Shown here piece after piece: positions 4,655-14,437 of a stretch of DNA of 64,000 nt. The DNA comes from an uncultured Chloroflexia bacterium. Lineage in GTDB: Bacteria > Chloroflexota > Anaerolineae > CG2-30-64-16. The notes beneath the pieces were generated by a model that was not told where the DNA came from, searched no databases, and saw only the letters and a list, made by a program, of their open reading frames with translations. Both the position numbers and the translations under genes were made by a program. Each line of letters opens with the position of its first letter. The stretch's first letter is position 1. The stretch covers positions 32,001 through 96,000 of the forward strand of contig CAWEMM010000012.1 in NCBI GenBank assembly GCA_963810095.1, read 5' to 3'.

Positions 4655-4755
4655 AGGACTCTCAGTATCATCATGTGGGCTGGCGCCGGTCTTCGACCGT
4701 GCCCCTGGCGGGCGGCGTCCTCATGCAGGGCGGCCGCCCGCCCCGCTGGCTGGCG

Positions 4756-6239
4756 TCAGGCCTTCTGGGCGGACACAGCCAGGCTGTAGACGTCCACACC
4801 CTCGAGTTGGCCGCCGCTCAGGCTGCGCTTGCCGGCGACATCTACGAACCCTGCCTGTCGCACGAGATCCAGGTACTCCTGCTCGGGCAGCGCGCCGTTG
4901 ATGCAGCCCGCCCACATCTGCGGGTCGCCGCGCACGCTCATGGGCAGCGGACCGGCCGTCACCATGTCGCTGATGCTCAAGCGGCCGCCCGGCTTCAGCA
5001 CCCGGTAGGCTTCCTCGAAGACGCGGCCCTTGTCTTCCGCCAGGTTGATCACGCAGTTAGAGAGGATCACGTCGACCGTGCCATCTTCCACCGGCATCTC
5101 TTCCGCCTGGCCGAGCCGGAACTCGACCTGCTTCAGCCCGGCCTCCGCCGCGTTGCGCCGGGCACGCTCGATCATCGACGGGGTCATGTCCAGCCCGATC
5201 ACCCTGCCCGCCGGGCCCAACCCGACGGGCCGCGTAAAGCGCGTCGATCCCCGCGCCGCTGCCGATGTCGAGGACCGTCTCGCCCGGCCGCAGCGATGCC
5301 ATCGCGGTCGGATTACCGCAGCCGAGCGACATGTTCGCCGCGTCCAGGGGCACCGCGGCCAATTGCTCGGCGGTGTAGCCCGTGTCGTACAGCACCAGGT
5401 CCGCCTGGCCCGTCTCGACCAGTTCCATCGCGTGTGACGTGGGCGAACGGCAACTGCTCGATGCACGCGCCGCTCGCTGGCGAGCCGCTCTCGGATGTTG
5501 AGCAACAGCTGCTTTGCGCCGTCGTCGAGCCACAGCAGCCACTCTCGGCCAGCGCGCCGTAGCTGGCCTGCACCGCGGCTCGCCGCGCCGCTCACCCGCC
5601 GGCTCCCCGTGGCAACGAAAATGCTCGATATCCGCCATCGTCTCACCTTGCCGGCTCTGCGAACTCGAACTGCACGTCTGCCGAGTGGCGTCCACGATGA
5701 CGTTAACCAGGCCGGCCGCCCTGAACCAGCCGCGCACGGTCGGAGCGCTCGAAGCCGAGCCAGACGTCCGCCATCTCGTCGCGCAGCCAGGCGTGCTCGT
5801 GCCGGTCCATGTCCGTGATCACCAGCCGGCCGCCCGGCTTGAGCACCCGGACCATCTCCTTGATCGACGCCTCGGGATCGGGACAGTGATGGAGGTACAT
5901 GTTGGCGAAGACCGCGTCCAGCGACGCATCGTCGAACGGCAGCGCCGCGCCGTCGGCCAGCCGCTGCTCGACGTTGTCGAACGCCGGCCAGGTTCTGCTG
6001 TGCCGGCCTCCAGCATGGCGGCCGATCGCGTCGACCGCGTAAACTTTCGCCACCAGCGGCGCCAGGCCCGCCGCGACGAACCCGGTGCCCGAGCCGACGT
6101 CGGCCACGACCATGTCGGGCCGCAGGTAAGCCCGCGCAATCGCCGCGTCGCGCACCGCATCGCCGAAAATAACCTGGTTCGCAGCGATATCCCACTCGCC
6201 CGCGACCCGCTCGAAATACTCGGCCGACGCCTAAGTCAT
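4756..6239 (-). CDS. arsM: Arsenite S-adenosylmethionine methyltransferase with an N-terminal extra class I methyltransferase domain (several frameshifts)
   Basis: Reconstructed across frames: N-domain [35 protein letters not shown]; Cys-rich linker GCCG..SCC; C-domain [36 protein letters not shown] (ArsM motifs). Confidence 0.8.
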
Positions 6240-6367
6240 CGCTCATCCTTCGTAGCCTGTCATGGCACATGCTCCTCTGCTGAAATGATGCGCAGGAACA
6301 AGTCTCTCCAACGCCAGCCCAGACGCACTCGTCAGGGCTCACGCGAAACCCGCTCCTGCAGCGGTTC

Positions 6368-6383
6368 ATCGTATTTTTACGAT
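6368..6383. promoter_or_regulatory. Palindromic operator ATCGT-N6-ACGAT upstream of arsM
   Basis: ATCGTATTTTTACGAT; same box as the two upstream of arsR at 6851-6885; overlaps a possible minus-strand TTGGCC-N17-TACGAT promoter. Confidence 0.7.
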
Positions 6384-6430
6384 CATTGTCGGCCAAAAAA
6401 GAGCTGCTCCCGGGGACGGCTGACTCGCGC

Positions 6431-6828
6431 CTACTGGCCGCGCCTGCGACCCATGGCGCGTCCAGCCTCGATCGAGCGGCGCAATCCGGATGCTCGACTC
6501 GCAGCAGCCCGGCAGCCAACCCTCGATTTGCTCCTTCAGCCAGCGCACGCCCGCCTCGCTGAGGCAGTAGCAGGTGGCCGGCCCCTCGAACTCACCCTCG
6601 ATCAGCCCCGCCTCGCGCAGCACTTTGAGATGCTGGCTCACCGTGGACTGGGCCAGCGGCGTCGTCGTCGACGATCTCCTGCGTGATACAGGTCTTGCGC
6701 TCGGCAAGCGTCTGCATGATCCGAAAGCGAATGGGATTGCCGAGCGCCTTGAGCATCGACACGAGCCGCTCTTCGTCTGCGGTGCTGGGCCGCTCCTGAA
6801 GCGTGATACTTGCTCCATGCTTGCGCAT
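6431..6828 (-). CDS. arsR: ArsR/SmtB family repressor (frameshifted; ends approximate)
   Basis: KALGNPIRFRI, TCIT, LAQSTVSQHLKVLREAGLI, ATCYCL and C-terminal GCC. Confidence 0.85.
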
Positions 6829-6850
6829 CCCCTTCCGACCCATTTGCTAC

Positions 6851-6904
6851 ATCGTATCCTTACGATGATATCGTCTTTATACGATATAATGCGTGATTTG
6901 TCAA
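6851..6904 (-). promoter_or_regulatory. Sigma70 promoter with two tandem ArsR-type operators
   Basis: Minus strand TTGACA (6904-6899)-17 nt-TATAAA (6881-6876); palindromes ATCGTATCCTTACGAT (6851-6866) and ATCGTCTTTATACGAT (6870-6885). Confidence 0.8.
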
Positions 6905-7332
6905 GCCCCCAATTTCGCGTTTTGCCAAAAACTCGGTGACCCGGCAGCGCAATGTCGTCTCGCACGCGGCGGAAGACGGCCAGCACCTCATCCTCGCTGC
7001 CCGATCGCCTTGGCCGGGTCTGGAAAGCCCAGGTGCACCCGCCGGCCCTGCCCCAGCCAGACCGGGCAGTTCTCGGCTGCATCGTCGCACACCGTCACGA
7101 CGAGGTCGAACGGCACGGTCCGGAACTCGTCTGCACTCTTCGAGCGGCCATCGTGCTCGATGCCGATCTCGCGAAGCGCCAGCAGCGCCAACGGATGAAC
7201 GTAGCCCGCCGGCTGCGTGCCCGCACTGTAAGCCTCCCACACGTCGCCCAGCCGGGCATTGACGATCGCTTCTGCAATCTGGCTGCGGCACGAGTTGCCG
7301 GTGCATAAAAAGAGGACTCGCCGCTTATCCAT
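6900..7332 (-). CDS. arsC: Arsenate reductase, LMW-PTPase/thioredoxin type (3' frameshifts, end approximate)
   Basis: VLFLCTGNSCRSQIAE P-loop, VTVCDDAAENCP resolving cysteines, FPDPA. Confidence 0.9.
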
Positions 7333-7827
7333 CTTGCTCCGTCTCCGCAACGCAAGGTGCCGGCCGGCTTTTGAATAACGATCAGAGGCTCTACAATAAT
7401 CTGCGCTCTTCACCGAATTGGCGACGAGGCTGTACTTCTGGGCAGAGGCGAGCGCCTTGCAGCACCCGGCGTTCCGTGCGAAGCGCTGTCGCCGCCAGCA
7501 TCCGTCCGCACCGTAATCTGCGGTCGGAAGTGGAGTTCGCTGAAGATCTCCGTCCGGTCGATCTCGATCTTCTTCGTCCCATCCGCTCGGCAGCGGTAAT
7601 CCACGAGATCGATCTTGAACCGCTCGCACGCCCACAAGAACATCAGCATGATGCAGGTGTTTGCGGCAGCCACGAACGCGTCTTCCGGCGTGAGCACGTC
7701 CGCTCTGCCCGTGCGCGTCCGGAGGGCGCTGAGAAAACCATCTCCGGGCCATTCCCGAGGACGAGGTGGCCCGAGTGTCCGCCGCGCCATTCGACGTCCG
7801 TGCGATACGTTCGCGGTCTTAGCTCAT
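7325..7827 (-). CDS. OsmC/Ohr-like protein (frameshifted)
   Basis: Reconstructed YRTDVEW..FSAPP..TPEDAFVAAANTC..AQKYSLVANSVK; first OsmC Cys present, second usual Cys position reads Ser. Confidence 0.65.
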
Positions 7828-8569
7828 GGCGCCGGCCCTCGCGCTCTGAGCGCTGCGCGCAGTACGCCTGCCATGCCAGCCCGACCGCCTGCGAATACCA
7901 TGCTTCATCCTCCGCGGCCACGTCGTTGTACACCTGCGCGGTCTGCCAGATCTACGGCGGGCAGGCCGGCGTCCGCGCGCAGCCCTTGTTTGTAGCGCCA
8001 TTTCCAGGATCGGTTCGAGAGCCATGATCGTAGCCGTGCGGCCGTCCAACTCGACCGTGGTCACGGGGATTCCCGATCCGCAGGCGCACGCCGAAGTGCT
8101 GACGCTTTTCGGCGGCCGGGTCTCGCTTCCAGGAGCGCGCCGGCTGTCCGGCTCCAGCGGGCTGCAATCAGCCGATCGACTTCCGCAGCGACCGCGCCGG
8201 CCAGGGCTTCGACGACCGCCCGGCTTTCGGGCGTCAGGCGGCGCAGCCCTTCCGGCTGTGGCAGCCCACGCTCTGCCGCGAACTCGTCCACGACGAACGC
8301 GGCGGCGGGCGCGTTGCTGTAGCGTTCGGTCGCCGCGGGCGGCGCACCGCTTCTCGCAGCCGTCCACCGCGATCGTCGGGTAGAACCTGGCGAAGGCGCG
8401 GTCGCCCTCGCCGCCCGCCAGGAAGAGGGGCAGGCAGATGGTTACGGTCTGGTCGGGCCGCAAGCCCTCGAGCACCCGGAGCGCGGCCTGCCGGGTTACC
8501 ATGCCCGCCGGGCAGTTCCTCGCCGGAACAGGCGATGACGCCGACTTTGCGGCTCGGAAGACTAGGCAT
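7819..8569 (-). CDS. DGC-domain (putative Zn-binding) protein with a C-terminal CAC-containing extra domain (frameshifted)
   Basis: IACSG, TICLP, IAVDGCEKRCA, then CACGSGIPV...YNDV...Y domain. Confidence 0.7.
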
Positions 8570-9014
8570 GGTCGGCTCCCTGCTCCGGCGTGCCGGGGCT
8601 TAGCGCCGCATCCACCGCGCCCACGACTTCCTCCGCCAGCGCCCGCGCCAGCGCCAGGCCGCCCTCATTCAGCTCGGCAATCCCCGCGGGCTTTAAGGTT
8701 CGATTGCGCCGGAACGTATCCAGCACCGTGAACTCCTGCGCCACCGTGCCGCCCGACGCGCGCTACCAGCTTGCGTTGCGCAGGCCAGCTTGCAACCGTC
8801 CAGTGTCACGACGGGCGCGGTCCTGCAACGCGGCGCGGCCTGCTTCATCGCCCAGAACCAGCAGCGACAAGCGGCACGATCGCGGTGGTTTCGCGGCCGC
8901 AGTTCGTCAATCACGATGTACGCGGCTTCCCGCGTCACTGCGCCGTACGCCTTGCCGATCCCGCTGCACGGCACGATGCAGACCGGCGCGCGGCGCCGCC
9001 GTTGTCTCGCTCAT
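8562..9014 (-). CDS. DGC-domain (putative Zn-binding) protein (frameshifted)
   Basis: PCSGIGKAYGAVTREAAY and VTLDGCKLACAT. Confidence 0.7.
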
Positions 9015-9467
9015 CGATTCTCCCTCGGCTTCGGCCTGCGATCCGGGCGACCGCGAGGTAGGCTTCGGCGTCCAGCAGTCCGGAGACCGGCCACCGGGCG
9101 GGCCGCAGCTCGATGAGCCAGCCTTCGTCGTAGGGGCTGCTGATTGATCAAGCTCGGGCGCATCGGCGAGCGCGGCGTTGGTTGCGACGACCTCGACCCG
9201 CGAACGGCGCCGGAACGGCAAGGTCGACTTTGATGGTCTCGACATTCGCCAGGTCGTCCTCCGCTTCGACGGCGTTACCGACATCAGGCAGTTCCACGAA
9301 CGCGACGTCGCCGCTGGACTGCTGGCGAAAGTCGCGTCAGGCCCACCCGGGCCGCATCCCGTGCCGGGATCATAGTCGACCCACACGCCGGCAGCGGTGT
9401 ACAGGTAGCCGGACCGCACCCGAAAGATGAACTTGTCGACCCGGAACTCAAGGTCATGACCGTTCAT
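9011..9467 (-). CDS. Glycine cleavage H-like lipoyl-carrier protein (frameshifted)
   Basis: Reconstructed [36 protein letters not shown]...PEL.N..PY..GWLIEL; lipoyl-Lys in ETIK. Confidence 0.75.
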
Positions 9468-10657
9468 TCTCGTCTCCTTGCCGTGGACCCGCTCGTGGCC
9501 GCGATCATCAGGCGCGGCCCGGTCGCACGGGCGGCGGACAGGCCTCTTCGGCAGCCGCCGTCATGCCGGCAGGCGCGGGCGGCCAACTCGCTCTTGAACC
9601 ACCGGCGCTGCAGCGCGAACGCCACATTGACCAGCGCGATCATGACGGGCACTTCGATCAACGGGCCGATCACGGCCGCAAACGCCTCGCCCGAGGTGAT
9701 GCCGAACACGGCGATCGCGACGGCGATGGCGAGCTCGAAGTTGTTGCTCGCAGCCGTGAAGGACATAGTCGCCGTCATCTTGTAGTTCGCACCTGCGCGA
9801 CGCCCCATCCAGAACGTGACCATGAACATGATCACGAAGTAGAGCACCAACGGGATCGCGATCCGGACGACATCCAGCGGCTGGTTGATGATCTGCTTAC
9901 CCTGCAGGCTGAACATCACGATGATGGTGAAGAGCAGGGCAACCAGCGTAATCGGGCTGATGCGGGGGATGAACTTCGTCTCGTACCACTCCCGGCCCTT
10001 AAGCCGCAACAGGATGAAGCGCGACCCGAAGCCCGCGATCATGGGGATGCCCAGGTAGATGAAGACGGTCCGCGCCAGCTCGCCGATGCTGATCTGCACC
10101 GTGGCGCTCTCCAGCCCCAGCGCCTGCGGCAGGACGGTGATGAAGATGTAGGCATAGACGCTGTAAAAGAGCACCTGGAAGACGCTGTTGAACGCGACCA
10201 GGCCGGCCGCGTACTCGGTGTCGCCCTTGGCCAGCTCGTTCCAGACGATGACCATGGCGATGCAGCGCGCGAGGCCGATGAGGATCAGACCGGTCATGTA
10301 CTCCTGGTTGTAGCCGGCCAGGAAGATGACGGCCAGCACAAACATCAGGATCGGGCCGATGATCCAGTTTTGTACGAGCGACATGCCCAGGACCCTCGTG
10401 TTGCGGAAGACCTCGGGCAGCCGTTCGTACTTCACCTTGGCGAACGGCGGGTACATCATCAGGATGAGGCCGATGGCGATCAGGATGTTCGTGGTGCCGA
10501 TCTGGAACTTGTTGATGAGGCCTTCGAAGCCGGGGATCAGGTAGCCGATGGCGACGCCGAGGGCCATGGCGGCAAAGATCCAGAGGGTCAGGAAACGGTC
10601 CAGCGTTGAGAGCCGTTTCGGGCGGCGGGCGCGGCTGCAACTGCCGATGTGAGTCAT
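9464..10657 (-). CDS. acr3: Arsenite efflux permease Acr3
   Basis: [44 protein letters not shown] and GPLIEVP motifs. Confidence 0.95.
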
Positions 10658-10966
10658 GTTGCTCTCTCCTTGACTCGATGAAGGCCTGATTTGCCGAGCG
10701 CCGTCAGTTGGCGTCCGCCTGCAAGGACGTTGGCCAGCATGGTCACGATCTGCTCGGGTGACGGGCACCCGGCCGCCGCTGAGCAGCTGGTCGTTGACGA
10801 CCAGGCCGGGCGTGGCGAGCAAGTCGTAACGCTGGTACTCGTCCGGCGTCGCCGCTCTTCTCGAAGGTCGCGTCGACGCCGAGTTGCGCGACGCCTGCTT
10901 CGCATTCTGCGCCAGCCGGTCACAGTTGGCGCAGCCGCCGCCTAGAATCTTGATGTGCAGGGTCAT
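10654..10966 (-). CDS. Small thioredoxin-like redox-active disulfide protein (MTH895-like), frameshifted
   Basis: [19 protein letters not shown] and GGRVPS motifs; merged with acr3 in the ORF track by indels. Confidence 0.8.
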
Positions 10967-11043
10967 GTCGCAAGCCTCCGTAACAAGGATGATAGATAGT
11001 GGCGAGAGCCCCGTCTCGCATTGAGCGGGGCCGCGTCAGCAGG

Positions 11044-11414
11044 CTACTCGTATGCCTCGCGCCCTGCGCCACGTTCCACCAGGCACTTGGGGCAGGTGCA
11101 GCAGGCGAGGGCCGTCGCGGACTGCCGGCCGTTGCCGTCGCTCGACGGCAGTCTGCGCAGGCCGCGGCCACCTGGCGCGCCACGTTGTCGTCCGCCAGGC
11201 GGTAGTAAATATTGGTGCCGTCGCGCTCGTCGACGATGACCTTGGCGTTGCGCAGGATCGCCAACTGCTGCGAGACATAGGGTTGCGATTTGTTGAGCGC
11301 CGCGGAGAGGTGGCACACGCACTCGGGCTCGACCCGCAGCAGGTCCACGATCTGCAACCGCACCGGGTGCCCGATCGCCTTGAGCAAGGCGGCCTGTTGG
11401 CGGTAATGTTCCAT
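11044..11414 (-). CDS. arsR: ArsR/SmtB family repressor with a C-terminal CCTCPKC motif (frameshifted)
   Basis: KAIGHPVRLQI, ECVCHL, QPYVSQQLAILR, DGTNIYYRL; first gene of the ars operon. Confidence 0.85.
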
Positions 11415-11448
11415 ATGCTGTCTTTCCTATATAGCAATCTCTGCATAT
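11413..11448. promoter_or_regulatory. Tandem ATAT-N12-ATAT ArsR/SmtB-type operator over the RBS/start codon
   Basis: ATAT at 11413, 11429 and 11445 (16-bp spacing) in an AT-rich patch before the first arsR. Confidence 0.5.
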
Positions 11449-11677
11449 ATTACGACCGCGCCGCGTCCCTGTACATGACGCACGTCAGCTTTCCATGTGC
11501 ACGTCGGGCAGAGACTGCGGCCGGCCCGGCAAGCGCTATTGACCATTGACACCCCACAAGAGTAGTGCGATAATCGCACAAAGGCCACTTGTGGCGGCGT
11601 GCCATTGCCCTCTCGCGCTCCCCCACGCCGCGCCGTGTTGCTGAGTCCTTCCGCCGAATTGTAAGAGGAGTAATGAC

Positions 11678-14437
11678 ATGGTCAGCACCAAACGCAGCCC
11701 TGCAGGAGAGCGCAAGCCGAGATCGGCGCGCGGGGCCGTCCGGGATGCGCCTGTGGCAGTCAACCAGGCCCAGGCATACGACGTGCGCATCGTGCCGGCC
11801 CAGGTGGCGCCCGGCCAGGAATACTGGCGCGTCGTCAGCGTGCGCCACTTGAGTCCGGACGAGAACCGCGGCAAGCACAACGTGTTTGTCGACGCCCAGG
11901 ACGCTTCCGGTCAGCGCTGTCGAGACGCGGCGCTGCGCATCGGTTGGACGTGGGAGGGGCGCAACCCCCAGGACGCGGCAGACCCGAAGGCGCTCGATAA
12001 GCCGGACACCGAGCCCGCGGGCAACCTGGACGTGTACAAGGGGCAGCATATCGAGCTCTGGATCCAGGGTGATGGCCGGCCCAGCGACCATGTCGCGAAT
12101 TTGCGCACGGACCACCCCGACGAGCCGGGACCGAACGGCGAGTTGTGGAACACGTTATTCCACCACTCATTTTATGTGATCTTCCGTCTCAGCAAGATGG
12201 AGCCGGCGGGAAATGGACAGCAGCCGGGCGCCTCGGGCGCCGGTGCGCCGGGCGCCGGTGCGGGAACCGTCACTTCCCCCTCCAGCCCGCCACCTTCCAG
12301 CACACCGCCTTCCAACCCGCCCACGGCCGCGGGCTCGCCGGGAACGCCGGCGCCGCCCACGAGCGCGCCCGCGACGACTTTCCGCTTCGAGGCCTGGCCG
12401 AGCGAGTACCGGGTCATCACGCAGGCATTCGGCGTCAACCCGCAGAACTACAAGCCGTTCGGGCTGCCGGGGCACGAAGGCCTCGACATCAAGGCGCCGA
12501 CCGGCAGCAAGGTGTTCTGCGTCGCACCGGGGCAGGTCAAACTGATCACTCTCGTGAGCCCCGATCCCAAGAAGCCGGCGTATGGCAACCACGTGCGGGT
12601 GCTCCATGCGGACGGCTACGAGACGATCTACGCGCACCTGCAGTCGATCGCGGTCGAAATGGGGCAGACCGTGGCCGCGGGACAGCTCCTCGGGTTGGCG
12701 GACAGCACGGGCAACAGCACCGGCGCGCACTTGCACCTGACGCTCAAGCATCACGGCGAGTCGTTCGACGGCTATCCCAGCAGTATTGTCGATCCGACGC
12801 CGTTCCTGGCGCCGCTGCTCCAGGCGCAGCCCGCACCCGCAGCCGCAGGCGTGAAGGTGTCCGAAAAGTTGGGCTTAAACTGCAACGCGCCCACAGACGA
12901 CAACGGCAACCTCACCCCCCGCGTCGCAAACCCCCGGCTCATTGCAGATACGGGCGTGGGCTGGGTCCGGCTGAACTTCATCCTGCGGCCGTTCAACAGC
13001 CCCGCCGACGCGGGTTGGGTGGAGAATTACCGGAAGATCATCAAGGGCCTGCGCGACCAGGGGCTCAAGATCTACGGCCTGATCCACGCGCAAGCGGTGA
13101 CGGGCGACCCGGGCAACCAGTTCCGTGACGAGCCGGCAGGCTCGATCGACAACGACTGGATCCGCCGGTATGCCGAGAACTTCCGCATCATCGTCCAGCA
13201 GTTCAAGAACGACGTCGCGGTCTTCGAGTCGTTCAACGAACCCAACGACTGGCACCGGGTGCCGGGCGACCGGCCCTGGGAACAGCCGTGGGTGCATCCG
13301 TACTGGTTCGCCGTGATGCTGCAGAAGGTCTACGATGCGGTGCGCGACCTGAATGTGAAGCTCGTGTCGGGTCCGCTCCTGTCGACGCAATTCGGGAATG
13401 CGGCGGCCGGCTACCTGGCCAAGACCTACGAAGGGGGCGCCAAGTACTTCAAGTGGGGGGCCGGCGCGCCCGTGCCGTTTGACGGCGTCGCGTTCCACCC
13501 GTACGTCCTCATGGATTCTTCCCAGCCCGCGCTCGAGATCCCCCCGCGCTACCAGGACTACATGAAGGGGGTCAAGGACGCGATCACGACGTGGGAGAAG
13601 GGCACGCTGCGGCCGGTCTACATCTCTGAGATCGGCTTCCAGAACGCAGAGGACCGCCAGGTGGAGTGCATGAAGGTGGCCCTTCGCTGCGCGCTGGACG
13701 ACCCGTCCGTCGCGCTCTGCTTCTGGTATGGCATGCAGGACGATCCCGGCGAGTCCTACGGCTTGTATCGTAAGGAGGGCCTGGCGCCCGAACAGCAGAA
13801 GCCGGCGTACCAGGCCTTCGTCGCGCTGGCCCGAGAGGACCGCCGCGTCCCGGTGGCAGCCCTCCGCCCTGCGCCCCTGGTGCCCGATGCCCGTTTCGTC
13901 GCCGAGCTCGATGCGGTGAAGGATGGGACGGTCTTTGCGCCGGGCAGCTCGTTCACCAAGGTCTGGCGCATGCGGAACAGCGGCACGGCCCCATGGGGTG
14001 ACGGCTACAAGCTGGTGCGAATCGACGGGCTGAGTCTGGGCGCACCCGCCTCGATCCCCGTGCCCGCCTGCCCGCCGGGTCAAACGGTCGACCTCGCGGT
14101 CCCATTCGTGGTACCGCCGGAACCCGCGACGTGCACGAGCAGGTGGCAGCTCGTCGATCCGACCGGCAAACGCTTCGGCCAACCGGTCTGGACGACCATC
14201 AAGGTGCAGGCGCCGGTTGCCCCCGGCGTCGCGGCCAAGGACCTGTTCGGCGCCGAACCGTCCGAGCTCCTCGCGCCGGCCGCGGGACAGACGGCCGTCG
14301 CCGCCGCGCTCGGCATCATCTACACGACCTACTGGTTGCGGGTGCAGGCCGCCCAATCCGCCGCTGACCCGCAGCAGGCGCTGCGCGAGGCGGCCGAGGA
14401 CGCGCTCGCACAAATCAGGGCGTGGACGGCGACCTGA
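11678..14437 (+). CDS. Multidomain protein: unknown N-domain, Pro-rich linker, M23 peptidase, clan GH-A TIM barrel, NBR1-like Ig domain
   Basis: GGAG RBS; HEGLD...YAHL...STGAHLH (M23); FNEPN...FHPY...ISEIG (GH-A glutamates); FTKVWRMRNSGTAPWG (NBR1-Ig); no signal peptide. Confidence 0.75.
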   Translation: MVSTKRSPAGERKPRSARGAVRDAPVAVNQAQAYDVRIVPAQVAPGQEYWRVVSVRHLSPDENRGKHNVFVDAQDASGQRCRDAALRIGWTWEGRNPQDAADPKALDKPDTEPAGNLDVYKGQHIELWIQGDGRPSDHVANLRTDHPDEPGPNGELWNTLFHHSFYVIFRLSKMEPAGNGQQPGASGAGAPGAGAGTVTSPSSPPPSSTPPSNPPTAAGSPGTPAPPTSAPATTFRFEAWPSEYRVITQAFGVNPQNYKPFGLPGHEGLDIKAPTGSKVFCVAPGQVKLITLVSPDPKKPAYGNHVRVLHADGYETIYAHLQSIAVEMGQTVAAGQLLGLADSTGNSTGAHLHLTLKHHGESFDGYPSSIVDPTPFLAPLLQAQPAPAAAGVKVSEKLGLNCNAPTDDNGNLTPRVANPRLIADTGVGWVRLNFILRPFNSPADAGWVENYRKIIKGLRDQGLKIYGLIHAQAVTGDPGNQFRDEPAGSIDNDWIRRYAENFRIIVQQFKNDVAVFESFNEPNDWHRVPGDRPWEQPWVHPYWFAVMLQKVYDAVRDLNVKLVSGPLLSTQFGNAAAGYLAKTYEGGAKYFKWGAGAPVPFDGVAFHPYVLMDSSQPALEIPPRYQDYMKGVKDAITTWEKGTLRPVYISEIGFQNAEDRQVECMKVALRCALDDPSVALCFWYGMQDDPGESYGLYRKEGLAPEQQKPAYQAFVALAREDRRVPVAALRPAPLVPDARFVAELDAVKDGTVFAPGSSFTKVWRMRNSGTAPWGDGYKLVRIDGLSLGAPASIPVPACPPGQTVDLAVPFVVPPEPATCTSRWQLVDPTGKRFGQPVWTTIKVQAPVAPGVAAKDLFGAEPSELLAPAAGQTAVAAALGIIYTTYWLRVQAAQSAADPQQALREAAEDALAQIRAWTAT

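Follow-up and report, generated by a model that had tools for sequence, protein, structure and literature searches.

A conserved GcvH-like, DGC, DGC and OsmC-like gene module inside an arsenic operon of an uncultured Chloroflexota bacterium, with a proposed lipoyl-dithiol role

The window examined in this study, a 64,000-nucleotide stretch of the genome of an uncultured Chloroflexota bacterium, carries an arsenic operon on its minus strand in which acr3 and arsC bracket four genes encoding a GcvH-like carrier, two DGC proteins (DGC1 and DGC2) and an OsmC-like protein, as seen from pieces of open reading frames and their Pfam matches. Table 1 shows the position of each gene. The genes for an ArsR with an ECVCHL motif, Acr3 and a low-molecular-weight phosphatase (LMW-PTP) type ArsC are co-directional and closely spaced, the arrangement by which ars-operon membership is recognized. 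The window Acr3 shares 82% identity over 359 aa with that of the intact homologous locus L012, where the homologue of the small thioredoxin-like gene belongs to the MTH895/ArsE family (NCBIfam TIGR00412, 72.3 bits). Within the four-gene module, the GcvH-like and DGC1 genes overlap by an ATGA, and overlaps of 8 nt join DGC1 to DGC2, DGC2 to the OsmC-like gene and the inferred OsmC-like stop codon to the arsC start; the module junctions at L012 overlap by 4, 8 and 8 nt. The original prediction, which had been made from the sequence of the window, named these genes, placed them between acr3 and arsC, and described abutting or overlapping start and stop codons. The Pfam matches (GCV_H, DGC twice, OsmC, SBF/Acr3 and LMWPc) and the overlaps read both in the window and at L012 are in full agreement with it.

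Table 1. Genes of the arsenic operon and of the enclosed four-gene module in the window
Feature	Positions	Strand	Evidence and remarks
arsR (ArsR/SmtB repressor, ECVCHL motif)	11083..11414	-	Pfam HTH_5 47.8 bits; one frame change near 11122 (frameshift-aware alignment to L012 ArsR)
Small thioredoxin-like gene (Thioredoxin_3), CxxC motif	10720..10966	-	Pfam PF13192 44.4 bits; three frame changes, fused to acr3 in the ORF list
acr3, arsenite efflux permease	9506..10650	-	Pfam SBF 203.4 bits; two frame changes, one near each end
Four-gene span	9467..7325	-	From the GcvH-like start codon at 9467 to the inferred OsmC-like stop codon at 7327-7325
GcvH-like lipoyl-carrier gene	9011..9467	-	Pfam GCV_H; ETIK with candidate lipoyl-Lys; six single-base insertions
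DGC1	8562..9014	-	Pfam PF08859; three invariant Cys (PCSGIGK ... DGCxxxC); four frame changes
DGC2	7819..8569	-	Pfam PF08859; DGC domain with four invariant Cys and a C-terminal domain of ~90 aa with an invariant CxCG; five frame changes
OsmC-like gene	7325..7827	-	Pfam OsmC; aligned with 2onf and 2d7v; six or more frame changes
arsC (LMW-PTP type arsenate reductase)	6900..7332	-	Pfam LMWPc 62.6 bits; three-frame reading; C-terminal part frameshifted
Downstream ars genes: another arsR-like piece, and ArsM-like genes for two SAM methyltransferases	4759..7094	-	Pfam HTH_5, Methyltransf_11 and Methyltransf_31; also frameshifted

None of the four module genes forms an intact open reading frame in the present assembly. 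Frameshift-aware alignment to intact homologues placed 6, 4, 5 and 6 frame changes in the successive genes, a total of approximately 21. Single extra bases account for 19 of them, and no in-frame stop was found in any of the four genes. Contigs built from short reads of four public runs (four studies) have one letter fewer than the window at the 12 places listed out of 23 (7358, 7401, 7698, 7727, 7953, 8761, 8775, 8819, 8871, 8893, 9021 and 9040), and 9 of these 12 fall within 12 nt of a predicted frameshift site. Because these bases are absent from short-read contigs, several of which show no other difference to the window, the frame breaks are assembly errors and not decay, as the original prediction had hinted in advising that the indels be polished. 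It could be argued that the window holds a decaying pseudogene cluster made redundant by a second, nearly intact copy of the module on contig C8, since the four genes have accumulated about 21 frame changes in 2.1 kb compared to 2 in 1.1 kb for Acr3, and the flanking 919-aa reading frame is intact. However, this explanation is scarcely credible and was rejected, given the lack of in-frame stops, the predominance of single-base events, the retention of conserved residues, and the short-read contigs from four studies that miss exactly those bases. For annotation, these findings indicate that the ars island of the present assembly requires polishing ahead of gene calling.

The first gene of the module encodes a protein of the GCV_H family (PF01597, cut-off 22.2), against which the intact homologue (P0001) scores 105.8 bits and a 46-aa piece from the window 33.4 bits. 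The carrier scores below the cut-offs for GcvH equivalogs (104.3 versus 115.85 for TIGR00527 and 108.2 versus 117 for NF002270), while the canonical gcvH of the same genome, located on contig C1, reaches 150.7 bits; on these sequence scores, the carrier is a GcvH paralogue. The genes gcvT and gcvP lie beside the canonical gcvH (C1:142896-152417) and neither occurs in the window, as had been remarked from the outset. The predicted lipoyl-lysine of the ETIK motif, another element of the original prediction, is encoded at 9231-9229 and is invariant (K78) in 71 of 71 homologues, and the window genome contains LipA and LplA/LipB-type genes. In 3 of the best 80 loci (L079, L084 and L094), the gene immediately upstream of the carrier is dihydrolipoamide-dehydrogenase-like (Pyr_redox_2 plus Pyr_redox_dim), and no such (Lpd) gene was found in the window.

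The window pieces of the two DGC genes score 27.2 and 30.5 bits against PF08859 (cut-off 27), and the intact homologues score 45.9 and 54.3 bits. The motif DGCxxxC is invariant in both proteins, and tblastn cross-hits of 34-41% identity identify them as paralogues, which is how they had been described originally. Cysteines conserved in all homologues are C12, C69 and C73 of DGC1 and C14, C45, C71, C75, C160 and C162 of DGC2. The PF08859 family is named 'uncharacterized metal-binding protein' or 'putative zinc-binding protein' in the sources, with no assigned function, and NCBIfam gave no family for either protein. When DGC1 and DGC2 were co-folded, the median ipSAE was 0.79, compared to 0.01 for the best of three controls; the ipSAE mark passed by this pair is attained in 116 of 157 solved complexes, as opposed to 2 of 215 mismatches. 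At least 75% of contacts agreed between runs, the partner pLDDT was at least 84, and the predicted interface joins residues 13-19, 45-52, 73 and 75-76 of DGC2 to residues 11-16, 41-49 and 71-74 of DGC1. The model therefore supports a DGC1-DGC2 heterodimer whose interface would be built from the invariant Cys loops of both chains (three plus four Cys). This result is unlikely to reflect memorized structures because no solved relative was found by sequence, with PDB sequence and profile searches returning only chance-level rows.

Structural comparison of the DGC2 AlphaFold2 model gave no PDB match at E <= 0.001 with Foldseek, and a wide VIA-align search reached a Z of 8.7 at most (3pu6_A, rmsd 3.0, 116 aligned residues), followed by generic alpha/beta folds. 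In that search, LMW-PTP arsenate reductases had Z values of only 6.6 and 6.3, and DGC2 cannot be assigned to a family on these grounds. Its C-terminal domain folded alone with a pLDDT of 83.1, had a best Z of 5.0, and returned no usable match in an Atlas search. No structural relative that would be informative emerged for the DGC fold, so that the DGC proteins may equally well have a role involving a metal or an Fe-S cofactor. Fourteen longer proteins were also found as candidate fusions, four of them carrying GCV_H and DGC, each a single sequence on one contig. They were set aside as Rosetta stones, as they may be artefacts of the 4-nt gene overlaps and error-prone assemblies.

The fourth protein contains an OsmC domain (PF02566, 39.1 bits for homologue P0004 versus a cut-off of 27.5), with the window piece just under the cut-off at 25.7 bits, and its sequence matches the solved structures 2onf and 2d7v. 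Its C57 aligns with the helix (peroxidatic) cysteine of both structures and is present in 73 of 73 homologues, a second invariant cysteine is C78 (L012 numbering; both are 100% conserved), and a PE(D) motif is conserved 10 residues before C57. Ser131, within a KYS motif, aligns with the C-terminal (resolving) cysteine of 2onf and 2d7v; this position is Ser in all 73 homologues, with no Cys in the column. In addition, the position of the catalytic Arg of Ohr aligns to the invariant His17 in what is a weak alignment (E 0.82). Since the OsmC-like protein lacks the resolving cysteine and single Cys mutants of Ohr are described as losing activity (PMC5384416), a simple peroxidase end-point is doubtful. 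The original appeal to lipoyl-dependent Ohr/OsmC enzymes is weakened by the serine. This serine and, at the level of a model, the predicted DGC1-DGC2 heterodimer are new in the current study.

The loci homologous to the module were collected with peptide patterns derived from Chloroflexota sequences, and the best 80, nearly all from Chloroflexota metagenome-assembled genomes, were examined. The four genes occur in identical order in 73 of these 80 loci, with the remaining seven cut by contig ends, although such counts overstate independence because most loci come from one phylum and are mutual kin. The association of the four genes is more than chance. In an even sample of the phylum, DGC2 was found at E <= 1e-20 in only 7 of 301 genomes (G000 included). 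Linkage to arsenic genes was assessed in the 43 loci flanked on each side by 5 kb or more, where Acr3 and ArsC were searched by tblastn within 10 kb. An ArsR-family gene was present in 41 of them and an adjacent ArsE-type thioredoxin (Trx_3) in 40, while Acr3 was found in 20, LMW-PTP ArsC in 21, and one or the other in 26, leaving 17 with neither; the linkage on which the original prediction had staked itself thus holds. Of 51 ArsR proteins encoded upstream, 50 carry the CVCH motif, including 13 of 13 from those loci lacking both Acr3 and ArsC in which ArsR was matched upstream. Among 41 loci that span 19 kb or more, ArsP_1 was found in 7, ArsA in 7, an ArsM-like gene in 6 and an AhpD-like CMD gene near the module in 15. 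Some of the loci lacking Acr3 and ArsC adjoin sulfur-related genes (TauE, rhodanese, sulfate permease), and DsbD-type genes also lie near the module in some loci. The second module copy in the window genome is located in another ars island (contig C8), and tblastn found Acr3 at only two places in this genome, either next to a module copy or about 8 kb away from one. No public RNA run is listed as containing the stretch. The DNA runs that contain it do so with small word shares, at most 0.13 each.

The explanation that we tentatively prefer, with somewhat less than even confidence, is that arsR, the arsE-like thioredoxin gene, acr3, the GcvH-like gene, DGC1, DGC2, the osmC-like gene and arsC form one arsenite-controlled operon, in which the middle four genes are an accessory thiol module arranged around a private lipoyl carrier and involved in a relay or in arsenic handling. 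In this scheme, As(III) would release the CVCH-type ArsR, and the housekeeping LipA and LplA/LipB would presumably lipoylate the carrier, which would be reduced by a dihydrolipoamide dehydrogenase such as the one encoded beside it in some relatives. The swinging dihydrolipoyl dithiol would then service the cysteine sites of its partners, namely the DGC1-DGC2 heterodimer and an atypical protein of the OsmC fold that keeps one canonical Cys, with the small CxxC thioredoxin as an additional member of the relay. The net effect would be that arsenic-reactive thiols are kept reduced, or that As(III) or arsenic-thiol adducts are taken from their targets and passed on to efflux, reduction or methylation. 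Lipoylation, the direction of electron or arsenic flow, and the substrate are what we infer here, and the module may accordingly be read as an arsenite-induced lipoyl-dithiol relay or arsenic-handling unit. The interpretation offered originally, of a lipoate-based arsenite sink, chaperone or redox relay, is partly supported by the ars linkage, the invariant lipoyl-lysine and the lipoylation genes of the genome, while its appeal to Ohr/OsmC enzymes has lost ground. It is also important to note that several observations fit our preferred explanation poorly: Acr3 and LMW-PTP ArsC are both missing within 10 kb in 17 of 43 loci, some of which adjoin sulfur genes; Lpd is adjacent in only 3 of the best 80 loci and is not in the window; and the OsmC-like protein lacks its resolving cysteine.

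There are several other potential explanations for the module. An As(III) S3 site requires three cysteines, and DGC1 has exactly three invariant ones, which lie within the predicted heterodimer interface; it is conceivable, if unlikely, that the dihydrolipoyl arm and this site (with DGC2) act as an arsenite sink or metallochaperone that binds As(III) and passes it to Acr3, ArsA or ArsM, with redox turnover small or absent. Both in the window and at many other loci, acr3 lies immediately next to the module, and ArsA occurs in 7 of 41 large loci. However, the Acr3 search detected no pump within 10 kb for at least 17 of 43 loci (ArsA was later found in one of the 17 and ArsP_1 in one), no similarity to ArsD was seen, and redox turnover is what the conserved OsmC-fold protein, the CxxC thioredoxin and neighbors of the Lpd or AhpD-like kind point to. 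A lipoyl-dependent peroxide defense that is co-regulated with ars genes, in which electrons would pass from NADH through Lpd and the lipoyl carrier to an OsmC-like peroxidase acting on the peroxides of arsenic stress, with the DGC proteins as helpers, would leave both invariant DGC genes and the CVCH ArsR, which is not a peroxide sensor, without explanation. The pairing of such a carrier with an OsmC-fold protein does have direct precedent, as lipoyl groups are described as reducing Ohr/OsmC proteins (PMC5384416) and the Trichomonas OsmC as accepting lipoate-derived electrons through the L and H proteins (PMC7946386). The peroxidatic-position cysteine and the upstream PE motif are likewise conserved, and 15 of 41 loci have AhpD-like genes in the vicinity, but with Ser at the resolving position in 73 of 73 homologues and an invariant, weakly aligned His (E 0.82) in place of the catalytic Arg of Ohr, we regard a peroxide defense as improbable.

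Regulators of the ArsR/SmtB type sense many ligands, and the module could in principle be an ArsR-family-controlled thiol module for another thiophilic metal(loid) or for reactive sulfur species that is often merely co-located with ars genes, as might be imagined from the 17 of 43 loci lacking both Acr3 and ArsC and from the TauE, rhodanese, sulfate permease and DsbD-type genes nearby. This appears very unlikely, given that even the loci without Acr3 and ArsC have CVCH in 13 of 13 upstream ArsR proteins, that the module is directly coupled in translation to acr3 and arsC in the window, and that it is present in both ars islands of the window genome.

A bolder version of the preferred lipoyl-relay explanation, which we consider somewhat unlikely, is that the carrier and the DGC1-DGC2 heterodimer constitute a new kind of arsenic-handling machine, in which the dihydrolipoyl swinging arm delivers As(III) or electrons to a composite seven-Cys site at the DGC interface. 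If this is true, anaerobes would possess a lipoate-dependent arsenic chaperone, or an arsenate or organoarsenical reductase unrelated to ArsC and ArsD. The toxicity of arsenite is classically ascribed to its binding of dihydrolipoyl groups; an arsenite-controlled operon with an own lipoyl carrier and dedicated Cys-cluster partners would be a resistance strategy that rests on the chemistry of arsenite poisoning itself. The DGC domain (PF08859), which occurs in thousands of unannotated proteins (4081 matches), would thereby gain its first functional context. The module suggests that these microbes turn a cofactor poisoned by arsenite into a tool against arsenite, which would be of relevance for how arsenic cycles in anoxic sediments and sludge, environments in which Anaerolineae-type Chloroflexota are frequently found.

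Compared to known systems, the window resembles classical ArsR-controlled ars operons in its CVC-type arsR, acr3, LMW-PTP arsC, ArsM-like methyltransferases and ArsE-family Trx_3 in one co-directional run, but differs from operons of the type arsR-acr3-arsC with an ArsE-family thioredoxin, ArsM or ArsP in its four-gene insert. ArsD is an arsenite metallochaperone, a small cytosolic protein of ars operons with a three-Cys site that serves ArsA; DGC1 likewise has three invariant cysteines, but no relation in sequence or fold was seen, and the partner ATPase is mostly absent from the module loci. In Mycobacterium tuberculosis, Lpd, the lipoyl protein DlaT, AhpD and AhpC form an NADH-driven relay that runs from a lipoyl protein via small Cys adaptors. 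The AhpD-family (CMD) genes that 15 of 41 large loci have close to the module resemble this relay in part, whereas the carrier of the module is a dedicated GcvH paralogue rather than an E2 subunit, and there is no AhpC. An arsenic-directed search of the full-text literature yielded no description of the four-gene module, in agreement with the statement to that effect in the original prediction, although a lone DGC gene in an ars operon of Pseudodesulfovibrio mercurii ND132 is noted in one preprint (bioRxiv 10.1101/2022.10.17.512643). That operon, arsR5-arsP-arsE-DGC, is listed there among the operons differentially expressed with arsenic, and it similarly places a PF08859 protein beside an ArsE-type thioredoxin under ArsR. 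Unlike the window module, the operon as given in the preprint has a single DGC gene, for a protein whose function is called unknown, and has no GcvH-like or OsmC-like gene. In the hydrogenosome of Trichomonas vaginalis, the L protein, H protein and OsmC detoxify peroxide (Nyvltova et al. 2016, cited in PMC7946386), so that an H protein serves a purpose other than glycine cleavage and carries electrons on its lipoyl group to an OsmC-fold protein, as is predicted for the module. Lpd is the likely recharger in the module too, and is adjacent in 3 of the best 80 loci. The module differs in that Ser occupies the resolving-Cys position, that a CxxC thioredoxin and two invariant DGC proteins belong to the unit, and that control would lie with a CVCH ArsR in ars operons. 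The LbpA lipoate-binding proteins of sHdr sulfur oxidation (PMC10332631; bioRxiv 10.64898/2026.10.01.755906) are also GcvH paralogues that act as dithiol carriers for a thiol or sulfur pathway other than glycine cleavage, sometimes with their own lipoylation enzymes, whereas the locus in the window has no sHdr genes and surrounds its carrier with other partners (the DGC and OsmC-like proteins) and another regulator.

Three-frame translation of the minus strand of the window, with Pfam searches of the open pieces, resolved the gene run listed in the table below. The original prediction had placed a GcvH-like carrier gene, two DGC genes and an OsmC-like gene between acr3 and arsC at 7325..9467, and this observation is confirmed in both gene content and limits, the ends matching the GcvH-like start and the inferred OsmC-like stop. 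The predicted ETIK motif is present (lysine codon at 9231-9229), and the junctions, described as abutting or overlapping, overlap by ATGA at the first and by 8 nt at the other three, identically to those of L012, an intact reference locus in a relative. As the original prediction also held, gcvT and gcvP are absent from the window; the canonical gcvT, gcvP and gcvH lie together on contig C1 of the same genome (G000).

Genes of the window, reference proteins of locus L012 and related features (Pfam bit scores)
Feature	Location	Size	Domain and score
arsR	window, minus strand		HTH_5 47.8
small Thioredoxin_3 gene	window, minus strand		Thioredoxin_3 44.4
acr3	window, minus strand		SBF 203.4
GcvH-like gene	window, minus strand, start codon at 9467		GCV_H 33.4 on 46-aa piece
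two DGC-domain genes	window, minus strand		DGC 27.2 and 30.5
OsmC-like gene	window, minus strand, last base of inferred stop 7325		OsmC 25.7, slightly below cut-off
arsC, LMW-PTP type	window, minus strand		62.6
second arsR-like piece, two methyltransferase genes	window, downstream of arsC		
P0001, carrier	L012	148 aa	GCV_H 105.8
P0002, DGC1	L012	138 aa	DGC 45.9
P0003, DGC2	L012	243 aa	DGC 54.3
P0004, OsmC-like protein	L012	156 aa	OsmC 39.1
dihydrolipoamide-dehydrogenase-like genes	L079:7557-9125, L084:183-1583, L094:7662-9062		Pyr_redox_2 + Pyr_redox_dim
second ars island of G000	C8:94300-115456 (L009:1-19001)		
second module copy	C8:104407-106450		
ArsR-LMWPc ORF	L009:17426-18241		HTH_5 (ArsR-type HTH) + LMW-PTP arsenate reductase
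third GCV_H-domain gene of G000	C9:627447-627794 (L096:6391-7155), minus strand		GCV_H 83.6

None of the four module genes is intact as an ORF in the window assembly. Alignment of the intact L012 proteins to the window DNA, with frame changes allowed, located six changes in the carrier gene, four in DGC1, five in DGC2 and six in the OsmC-like gene, 19 of these 21 being single extra bases, and found no in-frame stop in the module genes; the flanking arsR, thioredoxin and acr3 genes contained one, three and two changes, respectively. Logan contigs from four public runs of four studies were also compared with the window. These contigs lack one window letter at 7358, 7401, 7698, 7727, 7953, 8761, 8775, 8819, 8871, 8893, 9021 and 9040 (the 12 listed of 23 places), and predicted frame-change sites lie at most 12 nt away for nine of the 12. 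Contigs covering 7823-7986 and 8481-8632 differ from the window by one gap each and those covering 7325-7449 and 8830-8982 by two each, all without substitutions, and the contig covering 7528-7678, where no event was predicted, has neither gaps nor substitutions. Since several of these contigs are identical to the window save for the extra bases, gene decay is ruled out, and with no in-frame stop it is very improbable that the broken frames mark a pseudogene cluster. In the organism itself the module genes are best regarded as intact, and the frameshifts as assembly errors, as the original prediction hinted in advising that the indels be polished. Frame-breaking insertions crowd in the ars island (4700-11450), with 21 in the 2.1-kb module and only two in acr3, and the consensus problem seems confined to this island because the flanking 919-aa ORF (11678-14437) is open. 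A neighbouring 364-aa ORF is open too.

The module is a patchy accessory unit: DGC2 was found at E <= 1e-20 in only seven of 301 genomes sampled evenly across the phylum, and the 2-kb module block in 13 of 24 genomes of the family to which G000 belongs. Among G000 and 40 relatives, DNA searches found the block in 17 of 41 genomes; both this count and the phylum count include G000. When 1.84 billion cluster representatives were searched with a profile, 690 proteins matched at E <= 1e-3, 361 at E <= 1e-10 and 128 at E <= 1e-30. Scanning one genome per species with the DGC2 alignment matched 546 stretches, of which 342 encode a relative, and locus counts rest on the best 80 of these 342, almost all from MAGs labelled Anaerolineae, Caldilineales or Chloroflexota. 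The four-gene order is the same in 73 of the 80, and in the other seven the contig breaks off no more than 600 nt away. Among the 43 flanked by 5 kb or more on each side, an ArsR-family gene is present in 41 (within 2.6 kb upstream in 35), an adjacent Thioredoxin_3 gene in 40, Acr3 in 20 and LMW-PTP ArsC in 21, with one or both of the last two in 26 and neither in 17. The synteny search with ars genes proposed in the original prediction was therefore positive. Fifty of 51 upstream ArsR proteins, among them 13 of 13 from loci without Acr3 or ArsC, contain CVCH at the position where classical ArsR has its arsenite-binding Cys pair. In addition to this motif, Cys-rich C-terminal tails occur in the ArsR of the window (CCTCPKC, 11083-11170) and of L012 (CHC...CVCPKC, L012:10065-10130), and could form a second metal(loid) site.

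In the 41 loci that span 19 kb or more, recurrent neighbours were AhpD-like CMD (15), TauE (12), PF04060 Fe-S protein (12), FmdE (11), DsbD_TM (8), ArsP_1 (7), ArsA (7) and ArsM-like methyltransferase (6). Loci without Acr3 and ArsC (L027, L046, L050, L079) often have TauE/SafE, rhodanese and sulfate permease with STAS nearby. Within G000, tblastn places Acr3 at only two sites, each beside or about 8 kb from a module copy. The second copy, found by DNA search and 74% identical, is almost intact and lies in a second, larger ars island on contig C8. This island runs arsR-trx-acr3, SPASM and PF04060 Fe-S pieces, arsR-trx-ArsP_1, then FmdE, TauE, FmdE, DUF169 and the module, followed by a TlpA-like thioredoxin, DsbD_TM, an Fe-S protein, PadR, ArsP_1, an ArsR-LMWPc fusion and three arsC genes. 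The fusion, a single ORF, could be genuine or an assembly frameshift.

The L012 carrier scores under the NCBIfam cut-off for true GcvH (104.3 versus 115.85), and its lysine (Lys78, ETIK) is invariant; in the conservation analysis each protein was represented by 66 to 80 distinct sequences. G000 encodes LipA (367 bits) and LplA/LipB-type genes, a gene content suggesting that the paralogous carrier can be lipoylated by the genome's own enzymes. In L079, L084 and L094 a gap of 8 to 36 nt separates the end of the dihydrolipoamide-dehydrogenase-like gene from the carrier gene that follows it. The third GCV_H-domain gene of G000 is solitary: it adjoins a LysM/YkuD gene and a gene for a CoA-binding protein, and neither DGC, OsmC nor gcvT/P genes are among its neighbours. 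Four rare predicted proteins (P0126, P0127, P0133, P0135), each a single sequence on one contig, join GCV_H and DGC in one chain and may have arisen artefactually where the genes overlap by 4 nt. The small thioredoxin of L012 belongs to the MTH895/ArsE family (NCBIfam); the same searches of L012 proteins returned no NCBIfam model for DGC1 or DGC2.

Invariant cysteines are Cys12, Cys69 and Cys73 in DGC1, and Cys14, Cys45, Cys71 and Cys75 in DGC2, together with Cys160 and Cys162 (CxCG) in its C-terminal domain. The AF2 model of DGC2 (pLDDT 85.1) has an alpha/beta domain, with cysteines at the ends of strands 1 to 3, then a strand-and-helix domain; structure searches with AF2 models found no informative solved relative for either. 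When DGC2 was co-folded with DGC1, the median score was 0.79 versus 0.01 for the best of three controls, a mark that 116 of 157 solved complexes and two of 215 mismatched pairs attain, counts that are only rough for our own alignments. Contacts agree between runs to 75% or more, the pLDDT of the partner is 84 or higher, and memorisation of a known structure is an unlikely source of the score because no like complex has been solved. The predicted interface comprises Cys-bearing loops (DGC2 13-19, 45-52, 73 and 75-76; DGC1 11-16, 41-49 and 71-74), and the model supports, without proving, a DGC1-DGC2 heterodimer with a composite cysteine cluster.

The original interpretation is supported in its link to arsenic genes and in treating the GcvH-like protein as a lipoyl carrier; the functions it proposed are among several candidate mechanisms. 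We tentatively prefer a lipoyl-dithiol relay serving the cysteine sites of DGC1, DGC2 and the OsmC-like protein, a reading that is plausible but far from assured. It is rather unlikely that the module is purely an As(III) chaperone or sink, and a response that is not arsenic-specific is quite improbable. Peroxide defence would fit an OsmC fold and is also unlikely. Cys57 and Cys78 are invariant in the OsmC-like protein, and alignment to solved OsmC-family proteins (2onf, 2d7v) identifies Cys57 as the helix Cys and places Ser131 at the usual C-terminal Cys, a column with Cys in none of 73 OsmC-like sequences. According to PMC5384416, Ohr/OsmC enzymes need both cysteines and Ohr single Cys mutants lose activity; the OsmC-like protein therefore fails a defining feature of the two-Cys peroxidases. 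Paired with a dithiol donor, for example a lipoyl arm, it might still function.

Full-text literature searches aimed at arsenic found no paper that describes a GcvH-DGC-DGC-OsmC unit within an ars operon, in agreement with the original prediction, which knew of no description. The literature offers precedents for its parts: GcvH paralogues are used outside glycine cleavage in S. aureus GcvH-L (PMC12440151) and LbpA/sHdr (PMC10332631), and a lipoyl carrier feeds an OsmC fold in lipoyl-dependent Ohr/OsmC (PMC5384416) and the Trichomonas L/H/OsmC system (PMC7946386). The closest match among the papers found is the ArsR5 operon of P. mercurii ND132, where a preprint describes a PF08859 gene, its function given as unknown, after arsP and arsE under ArsR5 control, and includes this operon in its list of operons with differential expression under arsenic.
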